Below, in pieces: positions 5,517 to 62,342 of a stretch of DNA of 64,000 nt. The notes under the pieces are model-generated. The model did no database searches. It saw only the letters and a list, made by a program, of their open reading frames with translations, and had not been told where the DNA came from. How positions within the stretch are numbered: the first letter of the stretch is position 1; each line of letters starts with the position of its first letter. The DNA comes from Planctomycetota bacterium (GTDB lineage Bacteria; Planctomycetota; UBA11346): contig DASPLE010000058.1 of the NCBI GenBank assembly GCA_035627695.1, positions 43,423-107,422 of the forward strand. The letters are read 5' to 3'. Position numbers and translations under genes: made by a program.

Positions 5517-5622
5517 CGTCTTCCTCGCGCTCCAGTGCCCGGCCGCGATGGCGCGTTCGGCACATTCCGCGGAGCGGTGGCCGGCGCGTCGCCGCGGGGC
5601 GGCCGACCAGGCTGCCAGCGCC

Positions 5623-5628
5623 ATTATA
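5623..5628 (-). promoter_or_regulatory. perfect TATAAT hexamer (minus strand) ~110 nt upstream of ECF paralog 1 start; candidate -10 element
   Basis: AT-only hexamer is very rare in this 72% GC sequence; no convincing -35 found. Confidence 0.25.
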
Positions 5629-7911: not shown

Positions 7912-8084
7912 CGTCGTCCTCGCGGTCCAGTGGCCCGTCCGCGAGGTGCGTTCGGCACTTTCCGCCGGCTGACCGAGGCCGGGGGCGCGCACGGGGCAAC
8001 GTGACTGCCCGCCTAGGTATACGCCACGAACGACCGGCCGGCCCGGGCGCCGGGGCGCCAGGGGCCGGCGTGCGCGGCCGGAGG

Positions 8085-15105: not shown

Positions 15106-16554
15106 ATGCTCGCCGCCTTCCGTTCCGGTGATGCGCGCGCAACGCGCTGGCTGGGCGCCGAAGCGACGACCGATGCGTCGGCGTTCGCGCGCGGCTTCGC
15201 CTGGCGCGGGGACCGCGCGGCGCTGGCGGCGATCCTCGACCAGGCGGTGGCGGACGGCGGACGGCAGGCGCGCGTGGCGGTCGCGCGCCTGCGCGGCGAT
15301 GGCGTCGCGATCGTCGCCGGCCAGCAGCCCGCGGTCGGCGGAGGCCCCCTCTACACGCTGGTCAAGGCGGCCCAGGCGGTGGCGACCGCGCGCGCGCTCG
15401 CTGCCGCCGGCGTCGGCGCATCGGCGGTGTTCTGGTGCGCGTCCGAGGACCACGACCTCGGCGAGGCCGATCACGCCGACCTCATCCGCCGCGACGGCCG
15501 GATCGACCGCGTGCGCGTCGATCTCGGCGACGGCCGCGCCAGCCTGCGCTTCCGCGCCGCCGCGCCGGCGTTCGCGGCCGTCGTCGCGCGCCTGCACGCC
15601 GACCACGGCGACGGGCTCGGCTCGGCCTGGCTGCGCGCGCACGCGCCGCGCGCCGACGAGCGCCTCGGCGGCTGGCTGTGCCGCCTGCTGATGGAGGCCT
15701 TCGCCGCGCACGGCCTGATCGCGGTCGAGGCGCATCGCCTGCGTCCGCTGTGGGCGACGCGCCTCGCGCGCGCCATCGACGCGTGGCCGGCGCGCGAGCT
15801 CGCCGAGCTGCGCCGCGAGATCACCGCAGCCGGCCATGCCGACGCGCTCGGCGCGCTCGACGATCCGCCGCTGTTCCGCGATGCGCCGGACGGCCGCGAG
15901 CCGCTGGATCCCGGCGCGGCGCGCGCCCTGCTCGTCAGCGATCCGCTCGCGCTGAGTCCCGGCGCCGCGCTGCGCCCGGCCCTGCAGCAGGTGGCGCTCC
16001 CGGCGGCGTGCGCGGTGCTCGGTCCGGGCGAGCTCGCCTACCACGCCGTGCTCGGCCCGGTCTACGCCGCGCTCGACGTGCCGCGGCCGTTGCCGCTGCC
16101 GCGCGTCTCGGTCGCGCTGGTGCCAGGATGGCTCGAGCGCGCCGCCGAAGCGTGGGGCGTCGCGGTCGACGCGCTGACCGCGGACGCCGCGCCGCCGTCC
16201 TACCCGGCCCCGCTGGCGCACGAACTCGAACGCATCGAGGCCGCGCTCGCCGATCTGGCGCGCGCCGGCGGTTCGCTGCCCGGCGACCTGCCCCGCCGCG
16301 CCGCCGCCGGCCACGCCCGCCTGACCCGCGAACTCGAACGCCTGCGCGCCTCGCTCGCCCGCGGCGAACGCCGCCGCGCGGGGCGCCCGCCGTTCGGCAC
16401 GCTGACCGGCTGGCTGTTCCCGCGCGGCGAGCCGCAGGACCGCGTCATGAGCCTGTGCCAGGCGTTGTGGCTCTATGGTCCGGGACTGGCCGACACGCTG
16501 GTCGAGGCGGTGGCGATCACGGCGGCGGGTGACCGGCGACTGATCAGGGTGTGA
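15106..16554 (+). CDS. BshC/YllA-family protein (bacillithiol biosynthesis cysteine-adding enzyme homolog)
   Basis: highly characteristic N-terminal motif VAIVAGQQPAVGGGPLYTLVKA (cf. BshC VVTGQQ.GLF.GPLYT), 482 aa. Confidence 0.55.
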   Translation: MLAAFRSGDARATRWLGAEATTDASAFARGFAWRGDRAALAAILDQAVADGGRQARVAVARLRGDGVAIVAGQQPAVGGGPLYTLVKAAQAVATARALAAAGVGASAVFWCASEDHDLGEADHADLIRRDGRIDRVRVDLGDGRASLRFRAAAPAFAAVVARLHADHGDGLGSAWLRAHAPRADERLGGWLCRLLMEAFAAHGLIAVEAHRLRPLWATRLARAIDAWPARELAELRREITAAGHADALGALDDPPLFRDAPDGREPLDPGAARALLVSDPLALSPGAALRPALQQVALPAACAVLGPGELAYHAVLGPVYAALDVPRPLPLPRVSVALVPGWLERAAEAWGVAVDALTADAAPPSYPAPLAHELERIEAALADLARAGGSLPGDLPRRAAAGHARLTRELERLRASLARGERRRAGRPPFGTLTGWLFPRGEPQDRVMSLCQALWLYGPGLADTLVEAVAITAAGDRRLIRV

Positions 16555-28256: not shown

Positions 28257-28814
28257 CTACCGCGGCGCCCGCGCCCGCGCCTTCGCCCGCGCCTTCGCCC
28301 GCGCCTTCGCCCGCGCGCGCTCGCGCAGGAGGCGGCGGTATTCGCGCCCGACCCGGTTCTGCGCGCGCAGGCGCAGCATGGTGCCGCGGCAGCGCGGCGC
28401 GCCGCAGCGGCAGCGGTAGCGCGCCGTCCACACCCGTCGGTAGGGACCATCGATGATCAGGTTGTAGTCGAAGCCCAGCTCATCGCCGGGCGCGATCGGG
28501 CGCAGCGCGACCAGGAACACGCGCTGCCCGCGGATCACCGACTCGCAGTTCGGCGCGCACGAGTGGTTGATGAAGCGCGCGGCGTTGCCGTTGCGCGAGC
28601 CATCGATGACCACGTCCGGCGCGACCTCGAACAGCATGGTGTGGCCGTCGCGGCTGGTCGCCTGGCGCTCGGCCTCGTCGGCCGTCAGGCGTTGGCCGAC
28701 GTACTCGCCGATGCGCCCGCCGGTGCGCACGGCGCGCGTGGCGAAGGCGCCGCGGCCGTGGATCGCCGAGGTGCGGACGACGAACGGCTCGGTCTTTTTC
28801 GCGCGCGGCGCCAT
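28257..28814 (-). CDS. SET-domain protein (lysine methyltransferase fold) with C-terminal basic (KARA)n tail
   Basis: GRGAFATRA...GEYVG, RFINHSCAPNC, GDELGFDY, post-SET CRCGAPRCRG; tail RERARAKARAKARAKARARAPR. Confidence 0.75.
   Translation of the reverse strand: MAPRAKKTEPFVVRTSAIHGRGAFATRAVRTGGRIGEYVGQRLTADEAERQATSRDGHTMLFEVAPDVVIDGSRNGNAARFINHSCAPNCESVIRGQRVFLVALRPIAPGDELGFDYNLIIDGPYRRVWTARYRCRCGAPRCRGTMLRLRAQNRVGREYRRLLRERARAKARAKARAKARARAPR
28270..28322. repeat. 12-nt tandem repeat (GCGCCTTCGCCC)x~4 inside 3' end of SET gene, encoding the KARA tail
   Basis: gcgccttcgcccgcgccttcgcccgcgccttcgccc read directly. Confidence 0.85.
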
Positions 28815-28917
28815 CGGGCTCGGCACGCTGCGCCTCGCGCCGGTCATGACAAGGCCGCGCACGGTTCGGATGCACAGCCGATGCGCCGGACGCGGACCGC
28901 GCCACGATCCACGCATG

Positions 28918-37110: not shown

Positions 37111-39240
37111 TCACCGCTCGTGCACGATCGTATCGATGCGCCCGGTCGCCTCGTGCCCCAGCGCGCGGAACTCGTCCCAGGTCAACCGACCGAGCCAGTC
37201 CCAGTGCCGCGCATCGCCCGACGCGACGTGGTAGGTGTTGCCGTCGAAGACGACCGCCTCGTAGAAGCGATCGCCGCGCTCCGGTCCACCCGCGCCGGTC
37301 GCGCCGGCGGAGCCGCGGAAGGTGATGTCGTTGCCGCGCACGCGCACGTCCGCGCAGATCCCCTCGCGGTCCTGGATGATGGCGATGCCATTGCCGCCAG
37401 CCGCGCCGACGACCACGCGGTTGCCGGCGATGTCGACGTCGCGCGCGTTGTACCCGGTGATCTGCGCCCCGAACAGCCACTGGTCGTGGCCGACGCCGTT
37501 GTCGATGGCGGTGTTCCCGGCGATCACCACCTCCGAGCTCGCCTTGACCAAGATCCCGCCGGCATTGCCGGTGACGACGTTGCGTTCGCAGCGCACGCCG
37601 GCGCTGTCCGAGTCGACCCACAACCCGCTGCCGCGATTGTCGTGCACCTCGTTCGCGATCAGCCGCAGCCGCCGCGCGCCATCGAGCTTCGCGCCCGCCG
37701 CCCCCCAACGCACGCCGAAGCCGGCGAAACCGTTGTCGGCGATGCGGTTGTCCTCGATCAGCGCGTCCTCGCCGCCGCCGTTGACCCCGCACGCGCCGTT
37801 GCCGTGGACGCGATTGCCGCGCACCACGCAGCGGTCGCCGATGCGGATGCCGGCGAAATGGTTGCCGCGCACGTCGTTGTCCTCGATCAGCCAACCCGTC
37901 GACACCCGCTCGCCGTCGCCGGCCATGATCGCCGCGAGATGCGCCGGCGTCGCGTAGCGCTCGACCACCAGGCCGCGGATCTCGACGCCGTCGACCAGGC
38001 CGCGGAAGGCGTGCGGCGCCACGCTGGTGGCGACCTCGCGCCCCGCCGGATCGTCGGCGATCCAGATCGCGTCCTCGGCGTAGTCGAAGAACCACGCGCC
38101 CGGCCCGAGCGCGTCGCGGCTGGCGACGTGGCGCAGCACCCGGCTATCGAGGAAGCAGTCGTGGCGGAAGGCGCCACGTTCGCGTCCCGGCTCCATCTCG
38201 CCCTGCGCCGACGCCTCCTGGGTCTGGCCGCGGACCACCCAGTGCGCGCCGTCGCGGACGAACCCATCGAGCAGCCGCGCGCCGTCCAGCACCGCGCCGG
38301 GTTCGCCGATGAAGCGGTCGCGCGCCTTCGGCGCCACCGACTGCAGGCGATGGACGCCCGTCGCGATGACGAAGGTCGTCCCGGGCGGATGCGCGTCGAC
38401 CGCCGCCTGCAGGTCGTCGCCGACCGCGATGCGGACGATCCCGTCGCGCTGCGCCAGCCACCACCCGGTCGGTGCCGCCAGAGCGAGGGCGGCGCACGCC
38501 GCCAACGCCATCGCCTTGAGCTTGACGAGGACGAGCGTCCGGCCGGTCGCGTGCGCTGCCGCGACCGCCACCGGCGACGCGCTGCCGGCCGCGCACGTGG
38601 CGACCAGCGCCGGCGGCGCCGCCTGCGCCGTCTGCGCGCCCAGGAAGCCCAGCACGAGCGCCGACGACACCGGCACGCCGCGACGGCGGAACGCCTCGCG
38701 CAGCCGCTCGAGCGCGCGCGTCAGGCGCGTCTGGATGGTGCGCTCGCCGCAGCGCAGGGTCGCGGCGATCTCGGCGCGCGAGAGCCCCTGGAGGTAGCGC
38801 AGGACGACGACCTCGCGCTGCACGCGCGGCAGGCTCGACAAGGCCGCGTCGAGATGCGGCCGCATGAGATCCCAGCGCTCGCCGTCCGCGGCCGCATCGT
38901 CCACCGCGCGCGTCATCGCCGCCTCCCGTTCCCGTCGCCGGCGCCGGGCCTGCTCGCGCCGCACGTCGCGCGCCGCGTATCCGGCGACGCGGAACAGCCA
39001 CGCCGGCAGCACGGTGTCGCGGCCGAGCCCCTCGAGCCGCCGCAGCAGCACCAGGAACGTCGCCTGGGTCGCGTCGTCCGCCCCCTGCGGGTCGCCGAGC
39101 ACGCGCAGGCAGACGCCGTGGACCAGCCCGGCGTGGCGCCGCACGAGCTCGGCGAAGATCGCGTCCGACGGCGCGAGGCGGTACCGGCCCATCAGGTCGG
39201 CGTCGCTGGCCTCGGCGACGGGCACGGGGTCGTCGGTCAT
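37111..39240 (-). CDS. ECF-type sigma factor fused via one TM helix to a periplasmic parallel beta-helix domain homologous to the neighbouring secreted protein
   Basis: sigma region 2 (ATQATFLVLLRRL...AWLFRVAGY) and region 4 (VVVLRYLQGLSRAEIAATLRCGERTIQTRLTRAL); TM LKAMALAACAALALAAPTGWW; beta-helix repeats (IEDNRIADN, GNRVHGN, HDNRGSG...) and shared DAHPPGTTFVIATGVHRLQSV...DRFIGEPGAVLDG block with 34978..36930. Confidence 0.75.
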   Translation of the reverse strand: MTDDPVPVAEASDADLMGRYRLAPSDAIFAELVRRHAGLVHGVCLRVLGDPQGADDATQATFLVLLRRLEGLGRDTVLPAWLFRVAGYAARDVRREQARRRRREREAAMTRAVDDAAADGERWDLMRPHLDAALSSLPRVQREVVVLRYLQGLSRAEIAATLRCGERTIQTRLTRALERLREAFRRRGVPVSSALVLGFLGAQTAQAAPPALVATCAAGSASPVAVAAAHATGRTLVLVKLKAMALAACAALALAAPTGWWLAQRDGIVRIAVGDDLQAAVDAHPPGTTFVIATGVHRLQSVAPKARDRFIGEPGAVLDGARLLDGFVRDGAHWVVRGQTQEASAQGEMEPGRERGAFRHDCFLDSRVLRHVASRDALGPGAWFFDYAEDAIWIADDPAGREVATSVAPHAFRGLVDGVEIRGLVVERYATPAHLAAIMAGDGERVSTGWLIEDNDVRGNHFAGIRIGDRCVVRGNRVHGNGACGVNGGGEDALIEDNRIADNGFAGFGVRWGAAGAKLDGARRLRLIANEVHDNRGSGLWVDSDSAGVRCERNVVTGNAGGILVKASSEVVIAGNTAIDNGVGHDQWLFGAQITGYNARDVDIAGNRVVVGAAGGNGIAIIQDREGICADVRVRGNDITFRGSAGATGAGGPERGDRFYEAVVFDGNTYHVASGDARHWDWLGRLTWDEFRALGHEATGRIDTIVHER

Positions 39241-39416
39241 CCCGGTCGACATACCCCTGATGGCCGCCGCCCGCCAGATGGCGTCAGCGAACCGGCGCCA
39301 TGCCGCCCGGTGGCCCATGCATCACCTGATCCGGCCCGCGGTTGCCATGCGCCGGCCTCCAGCACACTCCGCGCGCCGGCCCGCCGGATCACCACGGTCG
39401 CGTCCAGGAGCGCCCC

Positions 39417-48481: not shown

Positions 48482-49837
48482 TCACGTCGCGATGGCGCCA
48501 TCGACGCAGTGGAAGCGCGGTCGCGGCGTGCTGTCGAGCAGGCGCACGCGCGCGACGTCGCGGAAGCGCAGCTCGACGCCGGCGTGGGCGTAGCCGCCGA
48601 CGGCGACGGTCGACACCAGCGGCGCGCGCGCGACGGCGGCGTGCCGTTCGCGCGCCTCCACCAGCGCCGCCTCCCATTCGCCGATCTGGGCGATGAGGCG
48701 CGTGCGCTCGCCCTGCACCGCGCGCAGCGCCGACGCCTCGCCGGGGACCGGGTCGCCGTTGCGTGCGATGGCGTGCGCCAGCAGCTTGGCGCGCTCGCCG
48801 AGCTCGGCGACGTGGTCGCGCGCGAACCGGCAACGCCGGTCGAGCTCGCTGATCAGCGCGTCGGCGAACGGATCGACGCCGACCTCGACCACGGTCGGCA
48901 CCTCCGCGGGCGAACCGAGCGTCGTGCACGCCACCGAGCCGGCGACGGTGATCCGACCCCCGACGATGTCCTTGGCGCGCACGCCGCCGGTGGCGAGCAC
49001 CGTCGCGTGCAGGATCCCCGCCTTGGCCTCGATGTCGCGTCCCTTGACCTCGCGCTCCTCGATGAAGCGCGCGTGCACATCGCCGTGCGCCTTGACGCGG
49101 CGCGCGCCCGGCAGGATGCCGCCGCGCACGTCGAGGTCGCCCTGCGCCGACACGCGCGCGTCCTCGACGGAACCGTGGACGCAGATCGAGTCGGCGCTCT
49201 TGACGGTGAAGCCGGCCTTGATGTCGCCCTTGATGACCACGGCGATGCGCGTGTCGATGTTGCCGCAGCGGAAGTCGACGTCGCCCTCGATGACCAGCGG
49301 CACGACGACCTCCCAGCGCCGGTCGCGCGCGCGGCGCATCACGCCGAGCGCCTCGGACTCGATGACCTCGGGGTCGCCAGCGCGCGGGCGGGTTCCGGCG
49401 CCGTATTCGCGCGCCGCGTCCAGCGGGCGTCCCGCCCGCGGCGGGATCGGGTTGCCGAGCACGTCGAGCCCGGCGGTCCCCGCTCCCGCCGGAGTCACGC
49501 GGGCCAGCGCCTGGCCGGCCTCGACCTCGACGAAGGCCATCAGCTCGTGCAGGTCGACGACGCCATCGGCGCCCGCCTGCGGATGCTCCTGCGGCCTGAC
49601 GAGGTGCTCGATTGTGGCGTCGCGCCCGTGCTCGGGCGGACGGCCGCGCGCGATGACGATGGCGCGATCGACCGGCGCGCTCTCGAGCAGGGCGCCCAGG
49701 CCGTCCTTGTCCAGGCCGGCGCGCAGGCCGTGCCGCTCGATCAGCAGGCGCAGCCCGTCGACGTCGGCGGCATCGCCTGCCGGGATGGTGGCCGTCGCCT
49801 CCATCCGGTCGGGAGCGACGGCGATCGTGATCGCCAT
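48482..49837 (-). CDS. FapA-family (DUF342) protein
   Basis: repetitive VxGxV/DI..KG beta-solenoid segments characteristic of DUF342. Confidence 0.6.
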   Translation of the reverse strand: MAITIAVAPDRMEATATIPAGDAADVDGLRLLIERHGLRAGLDKDGLGALLESAPVDRAIVIARGRPPEHGRDATIEHLVRPQEHPQAGADGVVDLHELMAFVEVEAGQALARVTPAGAGTAGLDVLGNPIPPRAGRPLDAAREYGAGTRPRAGDPEVIESEALGVMRRARDRRWEVVVPLVIEGDVDFRCGNIDTRIAVVIKGDIKAGFTVKSADSICVHGSVEDARVSAQGDLDVRGGILPGARRVKAHGDVHARFIEEREVKGRDIEAKAGILHATVLATGGVRAKDIVGGRITVAGSVACTTLGSPAEVPTVVEVGVDPFADALISELDRRCRFARDHVAELGERAKLLAHAIARNGDPVPGEASALRAVQGERTRLIAQIGEWEAALVEARERHAAVARAPLVSTVAVGGYAHAGVELRFRDVARVRLLDSTPRPRFHCVDGAIAT

Positions 49838-51764: not shown

Positions 51765-53192
51765 TCACCGCCGCAGCGTCATCGCCGCCCACGGGCCGCA
51801 GCGGTAGCGCCAGACCATCAGCGCGAAGATCGCGGCGAGGTACAGCAGGAAGGTCAGCCAGCAGGCGGTCAGCGGCGACAGGCCGAACGCGTGCCAGGTC
51901 TCGGCTGGCACCAGCCGCGCCGCGGCCATCACCGGCAGGCAGAAGACCAGCAGCGCGGCGCTGGTCAGCGTCACCAGCGGCCAACGCGTGTCGCCCGCGC
52001 CCTGGACGGCGAAGCGGAAGACGATGTGCCCGCCATCGAGGAAGAACATCGGCGCGCACAGCCACATCAGCGGGCGGCCGTGGTCGAGGATCTCGCGCCA
52101 GCGCGCGGCGCTCGCCGCCGGATCGGCGTCGTCGACCGAGACGTAGGCCGACATCAGCAGGTCGGGCGCCAGCACAAACAGCGCCGCCGCGGGAACCAGC
52201 ACGGCCGCGACCAGCCAGCCGGCGCGGCGCACGATCGCGCGCGCGACGTCGATCCGGCCGGCGCCGACGGCCTGGCCGACGCCGATGGTGATGCCCTGGC
52301 CGAGTCCGATCAGCGGCACGAGCACGGTCAGGTAGAGCGAGAACACCAGGTTGTTGGCGGCGAGCTCCGGCGTGCCGAGGCCGGCGATGGCGGTGGTGAA
52401 GACCAGCATCGCCGTCATCTCGAGCACCTCGGTGCCGCCGCGCGGCAGCGCCGAACGGCAGAAGCGCCACAGCCGCCGCGGGTCGGCGTTGCGCATCCGC
52501 CAGGTCGCGAAGCGCGCGCGCATCGCGCGGCCGAAGAACAGCGCGACGCCGATGGCGGCGCCGGTCGTGGTGGCGATCAGCGTCGCCAGGCCCGCCCCGT
52601 GGATGCCCAGCGCCGGCACGCCCAGGGCGCCGAAGATCAGCCAGCGGTTGAGCGCGATCGAGCCGAGGCAGACGCCCAGCGACAGCAGCATGACCAGGCG
52701 CGTGCGTCCGAGCCCGCCGAACCAGCCGGACAGGCCGGCGAGCAGCACCACCGGCAGGGTCTCGGCGAGGTACCACGAGCCGAGCGCGACCATGCCGGCG
52801 GTGACCGCCGGCGCGGCGCCGAACAGCGCGAAGATCTCGTGGCGCAGGCACAGCGAGGCCAACGCCAGCGCGCCGGCGATCAGCGCCAGCCAGATCATCG
52901 GCCAGGCGACGGCGCCGACCTCGTCGTCCTCGCCGGCGCCGTGGTGCTGCGCCGCGAACGCGCCGACGTAGCTGGCGCTGGCGATGAAGAACGCCTGGAC
53001 GGTGTAGGCCAGCATCCCCGCGGGCAGGCTCGCGGCCAAGGCGTCGGGGCTGTAGTGCGACAGGAACAGCCGGTTGATGAACTGCATCGCCCAGTTGACG
53101 CCGGCGCCCGCCGCGAGCGGCAGGGCGAGGCCGAGGAAGCCGCGCGCGCTGGCGAGGCTGGCGACGTCGGGACGCGGCGCGGTGACGTCCAT
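51765..53192 (-). CDS. MATE-family efflux transporter
   Basis: 12-TM, LALPLAAGAGVNWAMQFINRLFL start typical of NorM/MATE. Confidence 0.8.
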   Translation of the reverse strand: MDVTAPRPDVASLASARGFLGLALPLAAGAGVNWAMQFINRLFLSHYSPDALAASLPAGMLAYTVQAFFIASASYVGAFAAQHHGAGEDDEVGAVAWPMIWLALIAGALALASLCLRHEIFALFGAAPAVTAGMVALGSWYLAETLPVVLLAGLSGWFGGLGRTRLVMLLSLGVCLGSIALNRWLIFGALGVPALGIHGAGLATLIATTTGAAIGVALFFGRAMRARFATWRMRNADPRRLWRFCRSALPRGGTEVLEMTAMLVFTTAIAGLGTPELAANNLVFSLYLTVLVPLIGLGQGITIGVGQAVGAGRIDVARAIVRRAGWLVAAVLVPAAALFVLAPDLLMSAYVSVDDADPAASAARWREILDHGRPLMWLCAPMFFLDGGHIVFRFAVQGAGDTRWPLVTLTSAALLVFCLPVMAAARLVPAETWHAFGLSPLTACWLTFLLYLAAIFALMVWRYRCGPWAAMTLRR

Positions 53193-53291
53193 GGCGGGCC
53201 GCGCAGCGTACCGCCCGCCCGTCGCGCGCCAGAGCCCTGCCCGAGCCCGTGCGCGACCGGATCTCACCGACGCCCAGGCGCCGGAAGCACC

Positions 53292-56060
53292 TCAGAAGTC
53301 GTCGCCCTCCTGCGGCTGCGCAGCGGCCGGGACGAGGATTTCGAGGGGGAACCCGGTGGTCCTGGCGAGATCGCGCGCCGTGCTGCCGACGTCGCCCGCG
53401 TCGAGGTCGGCGCCGCGCGCCGCCAGCTCCTGCGCGATGTCGGGATTCCCGGTGATGCCGACCGCGAGCTGCAACGCGGTCATCAGCGTACCGGGATCCC
53501 GCGCGCCGATCGGGACGCCGGCCTCGAGGCAACGACGCACGAGCGCCGCGTCGTCGAGCAGCACCGCCGCGGCGAGCAGACCGGGGCCTTCCGCCTCGCG
53601 ACGGGCGTCGTCCGCGAGAGCCGCGGCAGCGCCGGCGGGATCGCCGCCGAGCGCCTGCGCGCGCGCGGTGATCGGCTTGCCGTGACGACGGAAGAGCGCC
53701 ACCACCCCCGCGGCGTTCGGTCCCGGCCCGAGCAGGTCGATCGCGGCCCCGCCCGGCGCGCCATGCCGGGACTCGTCCGCGATCGCGGCGCCGTGCGCGA
53801 GCAGCAGGTCGATGAGCGGCAGGTGCGCGGCGCGGCAGGCGTACCCCAGCGGCGTCGTCCCGTAGCGGTTGACGGGCGATGCCGGGGCGCCGCGCTCGAG
53901 CAGCAGCTTGGCCGCGGCGAGCGCGTGGTTGTCGATGGCGCGGTACAGCGCCGTGCCGCCGGTGGCGTCGACGGCGTCGATGCGCACGCGCGGATCGTCG
54001 AGGAGCGCGGCGATCGCGCGGCAGCGATCCCCCACCGCCGCGACCGCCAAGGGGCTCAGCCTCGAGCCCGGGAACGGTTCGGTCGGGTCGTCGCCGGCGG
54101 CGAGGCGACGGCGCACCGCGTCGGCATCGTCGTCGCGGATCGCCGACCACAGGTCGTCGCCAGGCCGCGCATCGGGGCGGAGCACGAGGACCTGCGGCAG
54201 ATAGACATCGCTGGTCTGCGCCGAGATCACCAGCCGCCACTGGCCCTGGTGCCGCTGCGGCGCGACGGCATGGAGCCGCCCATCGACCCACACGGCGCAG
54301 GTCGTGCCGTCGGCGAGCAGGCGCAGTTCGATCGCGCCGTCGTCCGGCCGCAGCGACGGGACCTGCGCCCCGGTGCCATCCAGGACGCACTGGGCCCCGC
54401 CGTTGTGCAGCAGCCAGCCGACGTGGTCGCCGGGGCTCGCGCCGCCGCCGACCGGCTCGAGCGCGACCATCACCCGCGCATACGGCCGCGCCAGGCCGGG
54501 CAGCGCCGTGAATGCGTCGCCGCGGATCGAGACCGCGATCGGCCCGGTGAGCGGCTCCGAGCGCAGGCTGACGCCGTCGCCGTTCCAGATGTGCGCGCTG
54601 CCGCTGGCGAGCGACTCGCCGAGATCGGGGTCCTCGAACGCCGCCGCGATGCTCGACCAGTCCGCGGGCCAACTCGGCGGTTCGGCATCCGCAAGGCCGG
54701 CCGGCAGCCGCCCGAGCGACATCGCGAGGCCCTCGCTCAGCACGCGCGCGCGTTCGATGGCGCCGCGCGCGCGCAGCGCCGCGTGGAGCGCGGCATCGGC
54801 GAACCAGCGATCGCCCCGACCAGCCGGCACATCGGCGTGCCATGCCGCGCAGGCGTCGTCGCGCCCCGCCGCCGACGCGCAGGCGGTGCCGAGCATGGCC
54901 AGCGCTACCCGCGGACAGCCGGCGTCGATCGCCCGATCCAGCGCGGCGAGCGCGGCCTCCGGTCGATCGAGCCAGGTCGCCGAGGCCTCCGCCACGGCGT
55001 CATCCCACGCGCCGGGTGGCACGCCGACGCGCGGATCCCAGGCATAGGCGCCGTTCAGCGATGCCGGCGGAAATGGTCCGCAACGCCGCGCCACCGCGGC
55101 TGCGTCGAGCAGGTCGAGGACCATCGGCCCGCCGAACGCGTCGCCCGCCGCGTCGGACCAGCCGAAGTGCCCGATCGGCCGGCCGTTGATCGCGGTCAGG
55201 ACGCGCGAGGCACCGACCGCGCGACGCATGTCGATGGCCGACGCCTCGACGTGGCGCAGCACCAGCGACCAGCCATGGGAGGCGTCCAATCCCGGGACGG
55301 GAGCGGGGGCGGGCGGCTCGTCGGCGACGACCGCCGTCGGCGTGGGCGCGTGACGCGGCCGCGCGGTCCACAGCGCCAGCGCGGCTACAAGCGCCGAGGC
55401 CAGGAGGATCAGCGGCAGCACCGGGATCGCCCAGGCGATCGGGGCGGCGCGCGCGACGAGCGCGACCCGACCCAGCACATCGACCATCGGCGCCGGCAGC
55501 GCCGCCGCGGGAAGCTGCTCGAAGAGCGCCGCCGGCGCCGCGCCGAGCGCGACGCCCCGGCGATCCAGGGCGGCGCGCATGCGCGCGAGCCCCTCGGCGA
55601 GCCGGCGGCTGACCGTCGCCTGGCTGATGGCGAGGCCCGCGGCGATCGCGTCCTGGCTCTGGCCGGCGAGGAAACGCGCGACCAGGACCGCGCGCAGGTC
55701 GACGTCGAGCTCGGCGAGCGCCTCGTCCAGGTGCGCGAGATCCGCGCGTTGCGCCTGCAGCGCCGGGACGTCGTCCGGCAACGCCGTGGTCAGCGGCCGC
55801 CGGGCGATGATGCGCGCGGCGCAGCGGCGGGCGACGGTGTGCAGCCACGCCGGCACGCGCTCGCGCACGCGGTTCGCGCCGCGCGCGAGTTCGAGGAAGG
55901 CGTCCTGGCAGGCCTCGTCGGCCTCCGCCGCGCGGCCGGTGACGCGCAGGCACAGGCCGTAGACCCAGCTGCCATGGCGCTCGACCAGCGCGGCGAACGC
56001 CTGCTGGTCGGCGCGACGGCGGAAGGCGTCGAGCAGGTCGAGGTCGGTCGGCGTGGCCAT
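53292..56060 (-). CDS. ECF-type sigma factor fused to TM, large extracytoplasmic region and C-terminal ankyrin repeats
   Basis: sigma regions 2/4 (ACQDAFLELARG...AWLHTVARR; LVARFLAGQSQDAIAAGLAISQATVSRRLAEGL); TM; ANK repeats GGTALYRAIDNHALAAAKLLLERGA...YGTTPLGYACRAAHLPLIDLLLAHGAA. Confidence 0.7.
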   Translation of the reverse strand: MATPTDLDLLDAFRRRADQQAFAALVERHGSWVYGLCLRVTGRAAEADEACQDAFLELARGANRVRERVPAWLHTVARRCAARIIARRPLTTALPDDVPALQAQRADLAHLDEALAELDVDLRAVLVARFLAGQSQDAIAAGLAISQATVSRRLAEGLARMRAALDRRGVALGAAPAALFEQLPAAALPAPMVDVLGRVALVARAAPIAWAIPVLPLILLASALVAALALWTARPRHAPTPTAVVADEPPAPAPVPGLDASHGWSLVLRHVEASAIDMRRAVGASRVLTAINGRPIGHFGWSDAAGDAFGGPMVLDLLDAAAVARRCGPFPPASLNGAYAWDPRVGVPPGAWDDAVAEASATWLDRPEAALAALDRAIDAGCPRVALAMLGTACASAAGRDDACAAWHADVPAGRGDRWFADAALHAALRARGAIERARVLSEGLAMSLGRLPAGLADAEPPSWPADWSSIAAAFEDPDLGESLASGSAHIWNGDGVSLRSEPLTGPIAVSIRGDAFTALPGLARPYARVMVALEPVGGGASPGDHVGWLLHNGGAQCVLDGTGAQVPSLRPDDGAIELRLLADGTTCAVWVDGRLHAVAPQRHQGQWRLVISAQTSDVYLPQVLVLRPDARPGDDLWSAIRDDDADAVRRRLAAGDDPTEPFPGSRLSPLAVAAVGDRCRAIAALLDDPRVRIDAVDATGGTALYRAIDNHALAAAKLLLERGAPASPVNRYGTTPLGYACRAAHLPLIDLLLAHGAAIADESRHGAPGGAAIDLLGPGPNAAGVVALFRRHGKPITARAQALGGDPAGAAAALADDARREAEGPGLLAAAVLLDDAALVRRCLEAGVPIGARDPGTLMTALQLAVGITGNPDIAQELAARGADLDAGDVGSTARDLARTTGFPLEILVPAAAQPQEGDDF

Positions 56061-56248
56061 CGTGGTCTCCACAGCGTGGTGGGCTCCTCGGGCGCCGCCC
56101 ATTCAATGTTTCCGCGTCCGGTCTGGCACCCGGCTCGTCCCGGGCGTGCCGACGACGGACGCCACCGCCGCGCAGCGGACGTGGCGCCGCGAGGCCCCGC
56201 CTCGCGCCTTGAGTCCCGGGCGCGGCGGACGACCGTGCGCGTCCGCAT

Positions 56249-56512
56249 ATGGACGTCGATCCGCTCGCGCTCGCCCGGCGCATCGTCGAAGGGCTCAATC
56301 TCGAAGGCGTGGAGCCGGCGAGCATCGATCCCAAGGCCCCGTTGTTCGGCGAAGGGCTCGGGCTCGACTCGATCGACGCGCTCGAGCTGGCCGTGGTCGT
56401 CGACCGCTCCTACGGGGTGAAGATCCAGGGCCAGGAGGATGGCCGCGCGGCGTTCGCCAGCCTCGAAGCGCTGGCCGCGTACATCCGCGCGCACGGCACC
56501 AAGACCGCATGA
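56249..56512 (+). CDS. acyl carrier protein
   Basis: 87 aa, phosphopantetheine site LGLDSIDALEL. Confidence 0.8.
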   Translation: MDVDPLALARRIVEGLNLEGVEPASIDPKAPLFGEGLGLDSIDALELAVVVDRSYGVKIQGQEDGRAAFASLEALAAYIRAHGTKTA

Positions 56513-58137
56513 CCACGACGCGCGAGGCCTACGACGTCGTCATCCTCGGTGGCGGCCTGGCCGGCCTGTCGCTGGCGATCCAGCTCAAGCAGGAACGGCC
56601 GCGGACCAGCGTCCTGGTGATCGAGAAGAAGGCGCACCCGCTGCGCGAGGCGGCGCACAAGGTCGGCGAATCGTCGGTCGAGATCGGCGCGCACTACTTC
56701 ACGCACGTGCTCGGCCTCGAGCCGCACTTCATCAAGGACCAGCTGCCCAAGCTCGGGCTGCGCTACTTCTTCGCCGACGGCGACAAGCGCGCGCTCGAGA
56801 CGCGCACCGAGATGGGCGGCAACGTCTTCCTGCCGTCGCGCAGCTGGCAGATCGACCGCGGCCGGTTCGAGAACCACCTCGGCGTGCGCGCGGTCGAGCT
56901 CGGCGCCGACTTCGTCCACGGCGCCAGCGTCGGCGCGATCGACCTCGGCAAGGACAAGAGCGAGCACACCGTCGCCTTCGCCGTCGGCGCCGACAAGCGC
57001 ACCGCACGCGCGCGCTGGGTGGTCGATGCGGCGGGTCGCGCCTCGATCCTCAAGCGCAAGCTCGGCCTGCTCGAGGGCAACGGCCACGACGCCAACGCCG
57101 TGTGGTGGCGGTACGACCGCCACGTGAAGATCGACGACTGGTCGACCGACGCGACGTGGCAGGCGCAGTGCCCGAGCCGCCAGCGCTGGCTGTCGACCGT
57201 GCACTTCATGGGCCCCGGCTACTGGGTGTGGTTCATCCCGCTCGCCTCGGGCAGCCACAGCGTCGGCATCGTCGCCGACGGGAAGATGCATCCGTTCAGC
57301 GGCTACTCGTCGTACGCCAAGTCGCTCGAGTGGCTGCGCACGCACGAGCCGCAATGCGCGGCGATGTGCGAGGGGCGCGACGACCAGCTGCAGGACTTCC
57401 TCGGCCTGAAGGGCTTCTCGCACTCGGCCAAGCAGGTCTATTCCGATCAGCGCTGGGCCTGCGTCGGCGAGGCGGGCGCGTTCCTCGATCCGTTCTATTC
57501 GCCCGGCAGCGACTACATCGGCATGGGCAACACGTTCGTCGTCGACCTGGTCAAGCGCAGCCTGGCCAACGAGCCGATCGCCGCGCGCTCGCAGTTCTAC
57601 GACCAGATCTACTTCACCTTCTTCCGCAACCACCTGTCGCTGTACGAAGGGCAGATGCCGCTGTTCGGCGACGCCAAGATCATGACGGCGAAGATCCTCT
57701 GGGACTTCGCCTACTACTGGTGCGTGCCGGCGGCGTTCTTCTTCCATCGCCGGCAGTGCGACCTGGCGGCATTCGCGCGGGGCAAGGCCGAGCTCGACCG
57801 ATCGGGCGAGATCAACCGCGCCATGCAGCGGCTGTTCCGCGACTGGAAGGCCGGCGACACGACGATCGCCAAGACCTTCATCGACGTGCCGAACATCCCG
57901 TTCATGCGCCAGCTCAACAGCGCGCTGCAGGACCCGCTCGACGACGCCCAGTTCGACCGCCGGCTGCGCGACAACCTCGCCCTGCTCGACCGCCTCGCCG
58001 GCGAGATCGCCGGCGAAGCGCGGCGTGACCTGCCGACGATCGACGCCAGCGGCCTGCCGCCGACGCCGGCGACGATCGAGCTGCTCGCGCCGATCCTGCA
58101 CCAGCTGCGGTCCAGGCCGATGGCGGCGAAGGCGTAA
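56509..58137 (+). CDS. FAD-dependent (flavin-dependent) halogenase
   Basis: GGGLAG Rossmann, conserved Lys (AAHKVGESS), WxWxIP (GYWVWFIPL), Fx.Px.Sx.G (FLDPFYSPG); ATGA overlap with ACP stop. Confidence 0.75.
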   Translation: MTTTREAYDVVILGGGLAGLSLAIQLKQERPRTSVLVIEKKAHPLREAAHKVGESSVEIGAHYFTHVLGLEPHFIKDQLPKLGLRYFFADGDKRALETRTEMGGNVFLPSRSWQIDRGRFENHLGVRAVELGADFVHGASVGAIDLGKDKSEHTVAFAVGADKRTARARWVVDAAGRASILKRKLGLLEGNGHDANAVWWRYDRHVKIDDWSTDATWQAQCPSRQRWLSTVHFMGPGYWVWFIPLASGSHSVGIVADGKMHPFSGYSSYAKSLEWLRTHEPQCAAMCEGRDDQLQDFLGLKGFSHSAKQVYSDQRWACVGEAGAFLDPFYSPGSDYIGMGNTFVVDLVKRSLANEPIAARSQFYDQIYFTFFRNHLSLYEGQMPLFGDAKIMTAKILWDFAYYWCVPAAFFFHRRQCDLAAFARGKAELDRSGEINRAMQRLFRDWKAGDTTIAKTFIDVPNIPFMRQLNSALQDPLDDAQFDRRLRDNLALLDRLAGEIAGEARRDLPTIDASGLPPTPATIELLAPILHQLRSRPMAAKA

Positions 58138-58240
58138 GCGAGGGCGAGGGCGCCGATCCGGACGATGTGCGCGTTCCCATGGGCGCGCCCGCCAACGGAT
58201 CGCCGCACCGGCCGTACGCTGGGAACCAGGCCTCCACCCC

Positions 58241-59665
58241 GTGGTCCAGACGTCTCCATCGCCGACGCGCGGCATCGCGCGTGAACTCATCGCCCTGGCG
58301 TTGCCGCTGTCGGTCGCCGGCGCGGCGATCGCCGCCAACGACTTCGTCGGTCGCTGGATCCTCTCGACGCTCGGACCGGTGACGCTGGCGGCGACCGCGC
58401 CCGCCGCGTTGTTCGCGCAGTGGCTGGGCGTGTTCTTCCTCGCCGCCGCCGGCTACCTCGCCAGCGTCGTCGCCCGCCGCGTCGGCGCGCGCGATGAACG
58501 CGGCGCCGGACCGGCGTTGTGGCCCGGCCTGGCGTTGGCCGCGATCGGCGGGGCGCTGGCGATCGCGGCGATCCCGCTGCTGCCCCTGGTCGCCGCCGCC
58601 GCGACCAGGGACGCCGCGGTCGCCGAACTGATCCCGCGCTTCGGACGATGGCTGCTGATGGCCGTCGGACCGGGGATCGCGCTGGCGGCGTTCAACGGCT
58701 TGTTCATCGGCATCGGCCGCGGCGGCGTCGTGCTGGCGCTCGATGGCGCCGCGTGCGTCATCAACGCGGGGCTCGCGTGGTTCCTGGTGCGCGCGGAGAC
58801 GGGGCCGCACCTGGGCGTCGACGGCGCCGGCATCGCCGCGGTCGCGTCCACCAGCGGCGCCGTCCTCGTCGCTGCGGCGCTGGCGTGGACGCCGCGCATG
58901 CGCGCGCGCTATGGCACCTGGGACGGCCGCTCCGGGATCGTGCGACGGCTGCGGCTGTTCATCTCCGAGGCCGGAGCGCAGGGCCTGAGCAGCGTGGTCT
59001 CGGTGGCGGCCTGGGGCTGGTTCTTCCTGGTCGTGGGTCGCTTCGGCCGCGAACCGATGGCGGCGACGAACGCGCTGATGGCGTGGACGGTGGTGGCGTA
59101 CGTGCCGATGATCGCCGTCGGCCGCGCCGTGACCGTCGCCGTTGGGCGCGCCACCGGCGCGGGCGATCCCGGGCGCGCGCGGCGCATCGCCCGTACCGGC
59201 TGCGCGCTGGCCGGGATGTGCGCGGTCGTTGTCGGCGTCGCCTTCGTCGCCGGCCGCGAGGCGCTCGTCGGCGCGTTCGTGCCGGCGGGTTCGGAAGGCG
59301 GTGAGCGCATCATCGCCCTCGGTCGCCAGCTGATGTGGGTGGTCGCGGCCTGGGGCATCGCCGACGCCGTGGTCATCGCCTACGCGGGCGCCCTCGCCGG
59401 GATCGGCGACGTCCGTTGGATGTGCGTCGCGGCGCCGTGCTGCCTGGGCACGCTGCTGGTCGTGCCGTGCCTGGCGATCCTCGCCGCTCCCGACGCCTGG
59501 TGGGGGCGGTTGGGAGCCGAACCGGTCGTCGTCCTGTGGTTCGTCAGCGTGGCCAACGAGATCGGCTGGGGCTGGCTGCTGCATCGCCGCTTCGCCGCGG
59601 TGACCGCGCGGCACGCCACCCCGCGCCGCGGCACGGACGATGCGCCGGCCGCGACCGCGGCCTGA
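58241..59665 (+). CDS. MATE-family efflux transporter (GTG start)
   Basis: 12-TM; ELIALALPLSVAG start; no ATG between halogenase stop and conserved N-terminus. Confidence 0.65.
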   Translation: MVQTSPSPTRGIARELIALALPLSVAGAAIAANDFVGRWILSTLGPVTLAATAPAALFAQWLGVFFLAAAGYLASVVARRVGARDERGAGPALWPGLALAAIGGALAIAAIPLLPLVAAAATRDAAVAELIPRFGRWLLMAVGPGIALAAFNGLFIGIGRGGVVLALDGAACVINAGLAWFLVRAETGPHLGVDGAGIAAVASTSGAVLVAAALAWTPRMRARYGTWDGRSGIVRRLRLFISEAGAQGLSSVVSVAAWGWFFLVVGRFGREPMAATNALMAWTVVAYVPMIAVGRAVTVAVGRATGAGDPGRARRIARTGCALAGMCAVVVGVAFVAGREALVGAFVPAGSEGGERIIALGRQLMWVVAAWGIADAVVIAYAGALAGIGDVRWMCVAAPCCLGTLLVVPCLAILAAPDAWWGRLGAEPVVVLWFVSVANEIGWGWLLHRRFAAVTARHATPRRGTDDAPAATAA

Positions 59666-59930
59666 TCGGCGGCGCCAACCTCTTCGCGGCCACGGACCTG
59701 GCAGGGCCAGGCGCCGGACCTGATCGCGCGTCGCACGTCGGCTCCGTCGTCCATGCGAGCACGAGGATTCGGTTTCTTCCGAGCCCGGCGCCCGTATGGT
59801 TCGCCCGGCGCCGCGTGTCGTGTCGCCTCTCCGGCGCCGAATGGCGCCTCTCTACCAGCGCCACGATGCCATTCCGGCGTCCGCAGCGTTTCTCTCGGCG
59901 CCCTCGCGGTGCCATCGTAAGGCTCAGTCT
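59666..59930 (+). promoter_or_regulatory. long structured leader upstream of RRM gene (several GGCGCC-based hairpins)
   Basis: ggcgccgaatggcgcc and gcccggcgcc...cgcccggcgcc inverted repeats; typical of cold-induced rbp leaders. Confidence 0.3.
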
Positions 59931-60293
59931 ATGGAACTCTTCGTCGGCAACCTTCCTTGGTCCATGTCGGATCAGGAACTGCAGGACCTCTTCTCCACGC
60001 ACGGCACGGTCGAGCGCGCCAAGATCGTCACCGATCGCGACACCGGTCGCAGCCGCGGCTTCGGCTTCGTCACGATGACCGACGACGCCCAGGGCCAGGC
60101 GGCCATCAAGGCCCTCAACGGGTCGCAGTCCGGCGGTCGTCCGATGACCGTCCGCCAGTCCGAGCCCCGCGGTGAGCGCACCGGCGGCGCCGGCGGCGGC
60201 GGCGGTGGCCGTGGAGGCGATCGCGGCGGCGATCGCGGTGGTTACGGCGGCGGCGGCGGCGGCGGATACGGCGGCGGCGGCAATCGTCGCTGA
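59931..60293 (+). CDS. glycine-rich RNA-binding protein (single RRM)
   Basis: RNP2 LFVGNL, RNP1 RGFGFVTM, Gly/Arg tail. Confidence 0.85.
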   Translation: MELFVGNLPWSMSDQELQDLFSTHGTVERAKIVTDRDTGRSRGFGFVTMTDDAQGQAAIKALNGSQSGGRPMTVRQSEPRGERTGGAGGGGGGRGGDRGGDRGGYGGGGGGGYGGGGNRR

Positions 60294-61001: not shown

Positions 61002-62342
61002 GTGGTTGGTGCCATGCGTAAGCGCACCGTGTGGCGCTCGGCGATCGCCGCGGTCGCCGCGGCCATCGTCGCCGTCGTGACGGTCCCGGTCAGCGCCCGT
61101 CCGAACACGCGGCTCACCCTCTGGCACGTCTGGGGCGGTGCGCGCAGCCAGCTCTTCGCCGACCTCATCGCGCGATTCCAGGCCGAGAATCCGGGGATCT
61201 CGGTCGACGCGGTCTTCATCCCGCCCGACCTGATCCACGACCAGCTGCTGGCGGCCGCGCGCTCCGATTCGCTGCCCGAGATCGTCGGCATCCACACCGA
61301 CTGGCTTGGCGAGTTCGACGCGGCGGCGCTGCTGGCGCCGCTCGACACCCTCACCGGTCCCGCGGCATCGGGCGTGCGCACGCAGGACCTCGAGCGCAAC
61401 CGCGTCGACGGCACGCTGGTCGCCCTGCCCAACACCGTCGCCGGCGGAATGGCGCAGCTGTACGCCAATACGCGCGTGACCGACGCCGCCGGTCTCGACG
61501 CCGGGCGGCGCCTGCCGCGCCGCTGGGACGACTTCACCGCGGCCAGCGCCGTCGTCGTCCGCGCGCTCAACCGCGAGGGCGTCCTGCGCGTCGTCGCCTG
61601 GGATCCATTCATCGAACCGACCATCCAGCCGTGGCTCGCGCTGTGCTTCGGCGCCGGCGCGCCGACCGTCAGCCCCGATGGCCGGCGATCGTTGATCGCG
61701 ACCGCGGGCGTGCGGCGGGTGATGGACGCGATCGACGCCTACGTCGCCGAGGTCTACGGCGCGTTCGACGGCTGGCGCGGACTGCTGCGCTGGCGCCAGG
61801 AGGTCGCGGGCTTCCTCGCGAACGCCGATCAGATCCGCCCCTTCGCCCGCGACCTGCAGGCCTATTCGCTGCAGGGCGTGTGGACGACGACGATGATCCG
61901 CGCCGCCGATCCCGCGCTGACGTGGGAGGTCGGCCCCCTGCCGGGACTGGATGGCCCGCATGGCGCCGTCGCGGCGCAGGGCTGGTCGTACGCCATGCGC
62001 CGCGACCGCGCCGACGATCCCTCGGCGTGGGCGCTGCTGCGGTACCTGACCATCGATCCCGCCGGCAACGGCGCGTTCTGCATCGCCCAGGGTCGGCCGA
62101 GTCCGCTCACGGCGCTCGACGAGGATCCCGGCTACGCCGCAGCGGGACGCCAGTGGCGGTCGATCATGGGCGTGCTCGCGCTCGACATCCGGCACCCGGG
62201 ATCGCTCCACGGCCACGTCCTCGACGCGATGCTCACCGAGATCCCCGCGCGGCGCGCCAGCGGCGAAGCGATGCAGCGCATCGTCGACGACCTCGACCGC
62301 CGCTACCAGGCGCACCTCGACGGCCTCGACGGCACGCGATGA
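61002..62342 (+). CDS. ABC transporter extracellular solute-binding protein (family 1, sugar type)
   Basis: signal/TM anchor then SBP_bac_1-like LTLWHVWGGARSQLFADLIARFQAENPGI. Confidence 0.7.
   Translation: MVGAMRKRTVWRSAIAAVAAAIVAVVTVPVSARPNTRLTLWHVWGGARSQLFADLIARFQAENPGISVDAVFIPPDLIHDQLLAAARSDSLPEIVGIHTDWLGEFDAAALLAPLDTLTGPAASGVRTQDLERNRVDGTLVALPNTVAGGMAQLYANTRVTDAAGLDAGRRLPRRWDDFTAASAVVVRALNREGVLRVVAWDPFIEPTIQPWLALCFGAGAPTVSPDGRRSLIATAGVRRVMDAIDAYVAEVYGAFDGWRGLLRWRQEVAGFLANADQIRPFARDLQAYSLQGVWTTTMIRAADPALTWEVGPLPGLDGPHGAVAAQGWSYAMRRDRADDPSAWALLRYLTIDPAGNGAFCIAQGRPSPLTALDEDPGYAAAGRQWRSIMGVLALDIRHPGSLHGHVLDAMLTEIPARRASGEAMQRIVDDLDRRYQAHLDGLDGTR

Follow-up and report, generated by a model that had tools for sequence, protein, structure and literature searches.

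An overlapping acyl carrier protein and halogenase gene pair in a planctomycete genome as a probable detached part of an aryl-polyene pathway

Xanthomonadin is a brominated aryl polyene, and the halogenase gene of its biosynthetic cluster has long been noted (PMC3691225). Lysobacter enzymogenes, which lacks this gene, makes a non-brominated pigment, while in Xanthomonas the gene is present and the pigment is brominated (PMC3691225). Loading of the carrier protein has been described both for xanthomonadin, where XanA2 loads XanC with 3-hydroxybenzoic acid (3-HBA; PMC6859482), and for the aryl-polyene (APE) pathway of Acinetobacter, where ApeH selectively loads the starter acyl carrier protein (ACP) ApeE, the protein of PDB entry 9LS6, with 4-hydroxybenzoic acid (4-HBA; PMC12624758). 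Arylpolyene clusters have been reported in Planctomycetota by genome mining (PMC8882080), and the arcuflavin genes of Azoarcus sp. BH72 are known to be spread over two chromosomal loci, one containing the halogenase gene arcA and the other the ACP gene arcV (PMC3949708). Here we describe an overlapping pair of genes, coding for an ACP and a flavin-dependent halogenase, in a 64,000-nucleotide (nt) stretch of the genome of a Planctomycetota bacterium (assembly GCA_035627695.1, contig DASPLE010000058.1, positions 43,423 to 107,422 of the forward strand), which is called the window in the following.

The pair is best explained as a two-gene tailoring sub-operon of an APE (xanthomonadin-like) type II polyketide pathway which has been split from the rest of its cluster in this Planctomycetota lineage; we put the probability of this reading at about 0.75. 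An earlier note on the same DNA had instead proposed a compact, possibly novel route to a halogenated product, made up of the pair and the transporter and sigma factor genes around it. This proposal fails because the ACP is of the ApeE/XanC type, the halogenase is of the type found in APE clusters, genes for a ketosynthase (KS) and a chain length factor (CLF) follow the same pair in relatives, and an APE-type CLF and acyltransferase are encoded in the same genome. Judged by sequence, both genes are orthologues of genes of the xanthomonadin/APE clusters.

The 87-aa ACP with its DSID site, which the earlier note had recognised, matches the Pfam PP-binding family with 31.1 bits (cutoff 20.8), and its predicted phosphopantetheine site is the serine of LDSID, Ser41, in the context FGEGLGLDSID. 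It scores 91.7 bits against the NCBIfam model NF006617, above the family threshold of 70, as opposed to 20.5 bits against the housekeeping AcpP model TIGR00517, far below the cutoff of 70.45. The possibility that the protein is simply the housekeeping AcpP, which had been raised in the note, is ruled out by these scores and by the lack of fab genes in the window. In a sequence search of the PDB the best solved structure was 9LS6 (E 1.4e-14), and ApeF (9L1V) was not among the 60 best matches. The glycine-rich loop between helices α1 and α2 that precedes the serine (F33-G34-E-G36-L-G38-L-D-S41) has F33, G34, G36, G38 and S41 at the same positions as ApeE in the numbering of PMC12624758. The family models and this loop identify the ACP as a starter carrier of the ApeE/XanC type known from APE pathways and not as AcpP.

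The product of the second gene, a protein of 542 aa, is by its motifs, its sequence relatives and its predicted fold a genuine flavin-dependent halogenase. It matches Pfam Trp_halogenase (PF04820) with 42 bits (cutoff 21) and also the generic families of flavin adenine dinucleotide (FAD) monooxygenases, namely FAD_binding_3, geranylgeranyl reductase and QhpG. All of the signature motifs claimed for it before are present, and the residues that define them do not vary among 21 members of its clade: the GxGxxG motif for FAD binding (GGGLAG, residues 14-19), the WxWxIP motif (W239-V-W241-F-I243-P244, with W239, W241, I243 and P244 invariant), K81, and the Fx.Px.Sx.G motif (F325-L-D-P-F-Y-S-P-G333, with F325, P328, S331 and G333 invariant). 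WxWxIP is the motif that tells halogenases from flavin monooxygenases, and the WVWFIP of the window protein aligns with the WxWxIP of PltA, CmlS, CndH and Bmp2. K81 is aligned to the lysine of FPKK in PltA, of PIKRG in CndH and of VKK in CmlS, which we take to be the catalytic lysines of these enzymes in the published structures.

Searches against solved structures point in the same direction. The PDB sequence matches at E<=1e-5, 19 in number, consist entirely of halogenases and 3NIX, an uncharacterised Cytophaga flavoprotein; PltA is the best of them, and the best solved relatives further include CmlS, CndH, Bmp2, ChlB4 and Mpy16. Tryptophan halogenases are barely detected (E 0.0026). An AF2 model of the protein (pLDDT 88.6, pTM 0.90) was compared with the PDB by Foldseek, and here ranks 1-45 are all taken by halogenases or 3NIX, with non-halogenating monooxygenases of the kynurenine monooxygenase (KMO) type appearing only after them.

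The two genes are joined by the ATGA overlap that had been read from the sequence before, with the halogenase ATG at 56509-56511 and the ACP TGA at 56510-56512, so that 4 nt are shared. The identical 4-nt overlap is present in four other loci (L001, L085, L157 and the P0036 contig), and in a further locus, L005, the ACP gene stands directly upstream of the halogenase gene. When compared with L157, the nearest relative, the ratio of nonsynonymous to synonymous substitution rates (dN/dS) has values of 0.05 (ACP) and 0.11 (halogenase), which shows that the pair is kept by purifying selection. The overlap suggests that halogenation takes place on an ACP-tethered starter, as a starter-type ACP gene repeatedly overlaps a halogenase gene; this recurrence is suggestive and not a proof. 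The part of the earlier proposal in which a carrier-bound substrate is halogenated can thus be retained, with a carrier-tethered aryl group as the most plausible target, but the part in which a self-contained route is fed from primary metabolism does not hold in view of the APE orthology of both genes.

A protein search returned proteins with 60-73% identity from metagenome-assembled genomes (MAGs) of Planctomycetota and proteins of about 50% identity named "halogenase" in Xanthomonas, Lysobacter and Luteimonas. Over all loci compared, identity is 58-73% in the planctomycete clade and 43-52% for the proteobacterial homologues. A metagenome scan with the single halogenase gave only relatives of about 50% identity, mostly of the proteobacterial type, and no close ones. 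The cluster halogenase of Xanthomonas citri shares about 50% identity over 517 aa with the window protein, and its gene stands in the order KS, CLF, family 2 glycosyltransferase (GT2), halogenase, ketoreductase (KR), ApeP-like dehydratase (DH), MMPL, LolA, LpxL-type acyltransferase (AT), ApeI-like DH, PlsC-type AT and ACP. The KR and DH positions fit XCC4003 and XCC4004 of PMC6859482, and the gene order would place the ACP in the position of xanC. Gene contexts were counted in 68 loci from genome and metagenome collections, each with a halogenase of 40-58% identity and flanked by 5 kb or more on either side. Within 10 kb of the halogenase gene a KS was found in 54 of the 68 loci, a CLF in 47, an LpxL-type acyltransferase in 41 and MMPL in 39; a homologue of the MATE transporters or of the sigma factor with ankyrin repeats which flank the pair in the window was found in none (0/68).

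The relatives also show in which company the pair itself occurs. On L085 (9195-20121), L005 and the P0036 contig the order is FabA-like DH, ACP, halogenase, KS, CLF, an ATPase of the ATP-binding cassette (ABC) type, an FtsX permease, a gene of unknown function, a KASIII-like gene, a second gene of unknown function and a BtrH_N/DUF4872 gene. Clusters of this type recur in planctomycete and 'deltaproteobacterial' loci, and they look like clusters of the aryl-polyene or dialkylresorcinol type in which ABC export replaces MMPL/LolA. The order in L086 and L004 begins with ligase, MMPL, LolA, CLF and KS and, after further genes, ends with the halogenase and an LpxL-type acyltransferase. Halogenase and acyltransferase are found together in L002, L007, L008 and L158, and in L001 the order is acyltransferase, ACP, halogenase, a KS being absent from the surrounding 10 kb. 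At the other end of the range, the 63%-identical halogenase gene of L084 (10001-11635, GCA_014193115) stands alone between metal genes of the fur/znuA type and marR/yceI, and genes for an ACP, a KS or an acyltransferase are missing from the 10 kb around it.

Two further architectures were seen among the relatives. In eight loci from Planctomycetota and Acidobacteriota (L056, L059, L063, L071, L072, L079, L014 and L062) a second halogenase homologue lies about 1.6-1.9 kb away; these second homologues are 40-45% identical to the window halogenase, a KS is 2-9 kb off, and the arrangement is neither that of the window nor that of the Xanthomonas cluster. APE clusters can also hold a shorter gene similar to Trp_halogenase/FAD_binding_3, coding for 430-455 aa (L086 6502-8468, L003 20375-21644, L002 1-1125), which is followed in planctomycete loci by a gene of unknown function for 216-225 aa and is divergent from the ACP gene in Xanthomonas. 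This second Trp_halogenase-like gene is not present in the window.

The window, which has a G+C content of 73%, contains the pair but not the rest of such a cluster. Genes were called by third-position G+C, and about 55 open reading frames (ORFs) were scanned against Pfam; no KS, AT, AMP-ligase, nonribosomal peptide synthetase (NRPS), thioesterase, phosphopantetheinyl transferase or flavin reductase was detected among them. When APE proteins from Xanthomonas and planctomycetes were compared with all six frames of the 64 kb by tblastn, no KS and no CLF of the PF13723 type were found, nor any LpxL-type (PF03279) acyltransferase, KR, DH, LolA or MMPL; the proteins of the Xanthomonas cluster match only the halogenase (50%) and the ACP (57% identity). 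A six-frame scan of the window for the AMP-binding signature gave no match. The earlier observation that KS, AT, NRPS and thioesterase genes are missing from the window is therefore correct. As KS and CLF are not in the 64 kb and a CLF of the clade type is encoded elsewhere in the genome, the window holds a fragment of a pathway and not a cluster: downstream, the pair is set apart from any APE gene by 5.9 kb in which four or more unrelated genes lie, namely those for MATE2, for an RRM protein, for a solute-binding protein and for a histidine kinase, and upstream by 56 kb. Chance is no issue in these assignments, since the features are ordinary gene calls and not a statistical pattern.

The missing members can be traced in part. 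The window lies on a contig of 119,048 nt, on which the halogenase is identical to HYE05244.1 and other window proteins are HYE05211.1 (VEL07_06750), HYE05213.1 (VEL07_06760), HYE05231.1 (VEL07_06850), HYE05240.1, HYE05242.1 and HYE05243.1. With the planctomycete-type CLF of L086 as query, 69 relatives were obtained, including HYE03903.1, "beta-ketoacyl synthase chain length factor", from a contig of 34,560 nt. A profile of the LpxL-type acyltransferase of the clade detected HYE03900.1 (VEL07_00145) with E 2e-110 on that same contig, three genes from the CLF; this is the acyltransferase whose gene is usually the neighbour of the halogenase gene. The VEL07 prefix is common to both contigs, which places them in one assembly.

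Table 1. Positions of the gene pair and of other genes of the window, with the basis of each assignment
Feature	Coordinates	Strand	Protein	Basis
Acyl (aryl) carrier protein of 87 aa, starter carrier of the ApeE/XanC type	56249..56512	+	HYE05243.1	NCBIfam, Pfam
Predicted flavin-dependent halogenase of the xanthomonadin/APE cluster type, 542 aa	56509..58137	+	HYE05244.1	Pfam, motifs, predicted fold
ATGA stop/start overlap joining the ACP and halogenase genes	56509..56512	+		read from sequence
ECF-type sigma factor with one transmembrane helix and C-terminal ankyrin domain, 922 aa	53292..56060	-	HYE05242.1	Sigma70_r2, Sigma70_r4, Ank_2
MATE1 transporter	51765..53192	-		MatE domain; start corrected from L157
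MATE2 transporter	58241..59665	+		MatE domain; start inferred from sequence
RRM-type RNA-binding protein with Gly/Arg-rich tail	59931-60293	+
Solute-binding protein	61002-62342	+
Sensor histidine kinase, running past the window edge	~62339 to window end	+
SET-domain protein	28257-28916	-
BshC-like (bacillithiol synthesis) protein	15106-16554	+
FapA-family protein	48482-49837	-

The sub-operon reading allows the following mechanism to be proposed. A ligase of the ApeH/XanA2 type, encoded outside the window, would load 3- or 4-hydroxybenzoate on Ser41 of the holo-ACP. The halogenase would take FADH2 from an unlinked flavin reductase, together with O2 and halide, to form a hypohalous or Lys81-chloramine-type species, by which the electron-rich ring, or at a later stage the polyene, would be halogenated while on the ACP. 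KS/CLF, KR and DH encoded elsewhere would then lengthen the starter to the polyene, and an LpxL-type acyltransferase would join the product to a membrane lipid. In such a scheme the MATE pumps and the ECF (extracytoplasmic function) sigma factor with ankyrin repeats would be chance neighbours of the pair.

Several points weigh against this reading. Only the CLF and the acyltransferase of the APE set have been identified in the VEL07 genome, with KS, KR, DH, ligase and LolA/MMPL not seen directly, and these two genes lie on another contig than the pair. We found no published biochemical characterisation of any enzyme of this halogenase clade, nor of the halogenase of xanthomonadin-type pigments; the activity, the halide preference and the timing, on the aryl-S-ACP or on the polyene-S-ACP, are for this reason what we infer. 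Free-substrate halogenases such as CmlS, CtcP and RadH score near the carrier-dependent CndH, Bmp2 and Mpy16. Finally, the nearest relative, too, has MATE1 next to the pair, but at a DNA identity of 92% this says little.

The first alternative to be considered, which we regard as unlikely, is that of a self-contained minimal route in which primary metabolism supplies an aromatic or acyl unit for loading on the ACP, the bound unit undergoes halogenation and release, and the flanking MATE pumps export it as a small halogenated molecule, perhaps under the control of the ECF-ankyrin sigma factor. The gene arrangement on which it was built is real: the sigma factor gene and MATE1 lie upstream and are divergent, and the likely start of MATE2 is a GTG at 58241, 103 nt past the stop codon of the halogenase, close to the 100 nt first given. 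MATE genes therefore flank the pair on both sides, and 64 kb without KS, AT, ligase or thioesterase would suit a small system. There is also a precedent in that planctomycetes are known to use stand-alone enzymes for the synthesis of a small aromatic acid that carries bromine (bioRxiv 10.1101/723874). The brominase of that system, BaaB, however, needs no carrier protein and has a chorismate lyase as partner (bioRxiv 10.1101/723874), and a link of the pair to the dibromo-anisic acid genes BaaA/BaaB was set aside on these grounds. The lack of a loading enzyme and of a thioesterase in the window moreover means that the unit is not self-sufficient, and both the APE-cluster orthology of the pair and the APE core genes in the same genome speak against it.

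Whether the transporters and the sigma factor form a unit with the pair, as had been supposed, was decided by comparison. Among about 150 loci from other lineages, not one has a homologue of the MATE pumps or of the ECF-ankyrin sigma factor beside the halogenase gene. The nearest relative, L157, is a MAG locus (prefix H0X45) whose halogenase is 94-95% identical at the protein level, with a DNA identity of about 92%, and its gene order is MATE1, a gap of 240 nt, ACP and halogenase. By blastn, positions 1-939 of L157 correspond to 52293-53232 of the window and positions 1089-2529 to 56198-57626, so that the 2,965 nt at 53233-56197, which hold the sigma factor gene, have no counterpart there. A repeat search of this stretch found no target-site duplication, no terminal inverted repeats and no mobile-element hallmarks; the only feature, a direct repeat of 16 nt with imperfect match (53247-53262 and 56233-56248), is probably due to chance. 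MATE1 is beside the ACP gene only in L157, where its dN/dS against the window is 0.18, and is near the halogenase gene in no other locus. No homologue of MATE2, which is 33% identical to MATE1, lies downstream of the halogenase gene in the other loci, the L157 contig stopping inside that gene. Neither of the MATE pumps is thus a conserved partner of the halogenase, nor is the ECF-ankyrin sigma factor; the sigma factor is probably not part of the system, and a link of MATE1 or MATE2 to the pair is unproven. A link of a CLF to the H0X45 relative was also considered and rejected, as the candidates MBA3709372 and MBA2481385 are far in accession number from MBA3847728.

Somewhat less probable than a minimal route is a role of the detached pair outside APE synthesis, for example in another type II polyketide synthase system or one of the dialkylresorcinol type, or its persistence as an evolutionary leftover which has not yet decayed. 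The distance of the pair from all other APE genes, at least 6 kb with four unrelated genes downstream and 56 kb upstream, would be in keeping with this, as would the solitary halogenase of L084 and the KASIII-containing architecture of L085. The strong purifying selection on both genes, the retained overlap and the presence of the APE-type CLF and acyltransferase in the same genome argue against it. We consider it very unlikely that the detached pair has been co-opted together with one or both of the flanking MATE pumps as an independent module secreting a small molecule of the halogenated hydroxybenzoate type made from ACP-tethered starters; if true, pigment synthesis and the formation of a diffusible halogenated metabolite would branch apart at such a module. 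Just as improbable is that the flavoprotein acts in vivo as a hydroxylase or other monooxygenase on an ACP-bound aryl polyene, for although it also matches FAD_binding_3, geranylgeranyl reductase and QhpG, and neither its clade nor 3NIX has been characterised by assay, the four halogenase motifs invariant in the clade (including WxWxIP and the lysine aligned to PltA, CndH and CmlS), the 45 structural matches ranked before the KMO-type monooxygenases and the fact that the presence of the gene tracks the brominated pigment in Xanthomonas versus L. enzymogenes (PMC3691225) all speak for halogenation.

Among the neighbouring genes, the ORF that carries the sigma factor domains spans 53292-56102, and the GenBank start of HYE05242.1 is at 56060. 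The window contains four ECF-type sigma factor genes, this one and three others at 3129-5624(-), 5662-7950(-) and 37111-39318(-), and in each of the encoded proteins region 4 is followed by a single hydrophobic helix and a C-terminal extension of 500-700 aa. The first two are tandem paralogues with 48% identity over about 790 aa; the extension of the third holds a beta-helix/NosD domain, in place of the ankyrin repeats of the protein next to the pair. Sigma factors of this build are simply frequent in this genome. A sigma-70 promoter scan of 53000-60000 found no promoter-like sites, a terminator scan of the same region gave only weak terminator-like sites inside genes, and an Rfam scan of the whole window gave no match. 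The last six genes of Table 1 are unrelated to the finding.

The locus adds a member in a fragmented layout to a kind of pathway that was known before, as were planctomycete APE clusters and split APE loci. It removes a false lead, as the pair is not a minimal new halogenation pathway, and it shows that fragmented planctomycete clusters can pass for compact novel systems if one window alone is read. The result also indicates that halogenated aryl-polyene lipids may be among the products of uncultured soil Planctomycetota. The recurrent overlap of the two genes also leads to a testable hypothesis, namely that halogenation on the hydroxybenzoyl-S-ACP precedes chain extension.

Among the known systems, the xanthomonadin (pig) cluster shares with the window a halogenase of about 50% and an ACP of 57% identity. 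Its halogenase gene is embedded between KS-CLF-GT2 on one side and KR, DH, MMPL, LolA, LpxL-type AT and ACP on the other, whereas the window pair is detached from KS, CLF, KR, DH and export genes; the Xanthomonas ACP and halogenase genes are about 10 kb apart in one cluster, whereas those of the window overlap. The host differs as well, being a MAG of a soil-type planctomycete. ApeE from the Acinetobacter baumannii / Escherichia coli APE pathway has F33, the glycine loop and Ser41 at the same positions as the window ACP. No halogenase is mentioned for the ApeE clusters in PMC12624758, which does not establish its absence, while the window ACP is paired with one; conversely, ApeE has the ApeH ligase and no ApeH-like ligase is present in the window.

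The carrier-dependent halogenases PltA, Bmp2, Mpy16, CndH and ChlB4 resemble the window enzyme in their motifs, in the aligned lysine and in being paired genetically with a carrier protein, but are only 15-22% identical to it. TM-scores against carrier-dependent halogenases, normalised to the query, are only 0.5-0.6. Residues 340-542 of the window protein make up a helical C-terminal region, and the printed alignments with PltA end at about residue 335-337. The predicted substrate would also differ, a hydroxybenzoyl- or polyenoyl-S-ACP in place of the pyrrolyl-S-carrier of the PltA-type group. The arcuflavin genes of Azoarcus, finally, are the precedent for a fragmented APE cluster, as there too an APE-type pathway is split over loci; Azoarcus separates the halogenase from the ACP, whereas the window keeps the two together and apart from the synthase.

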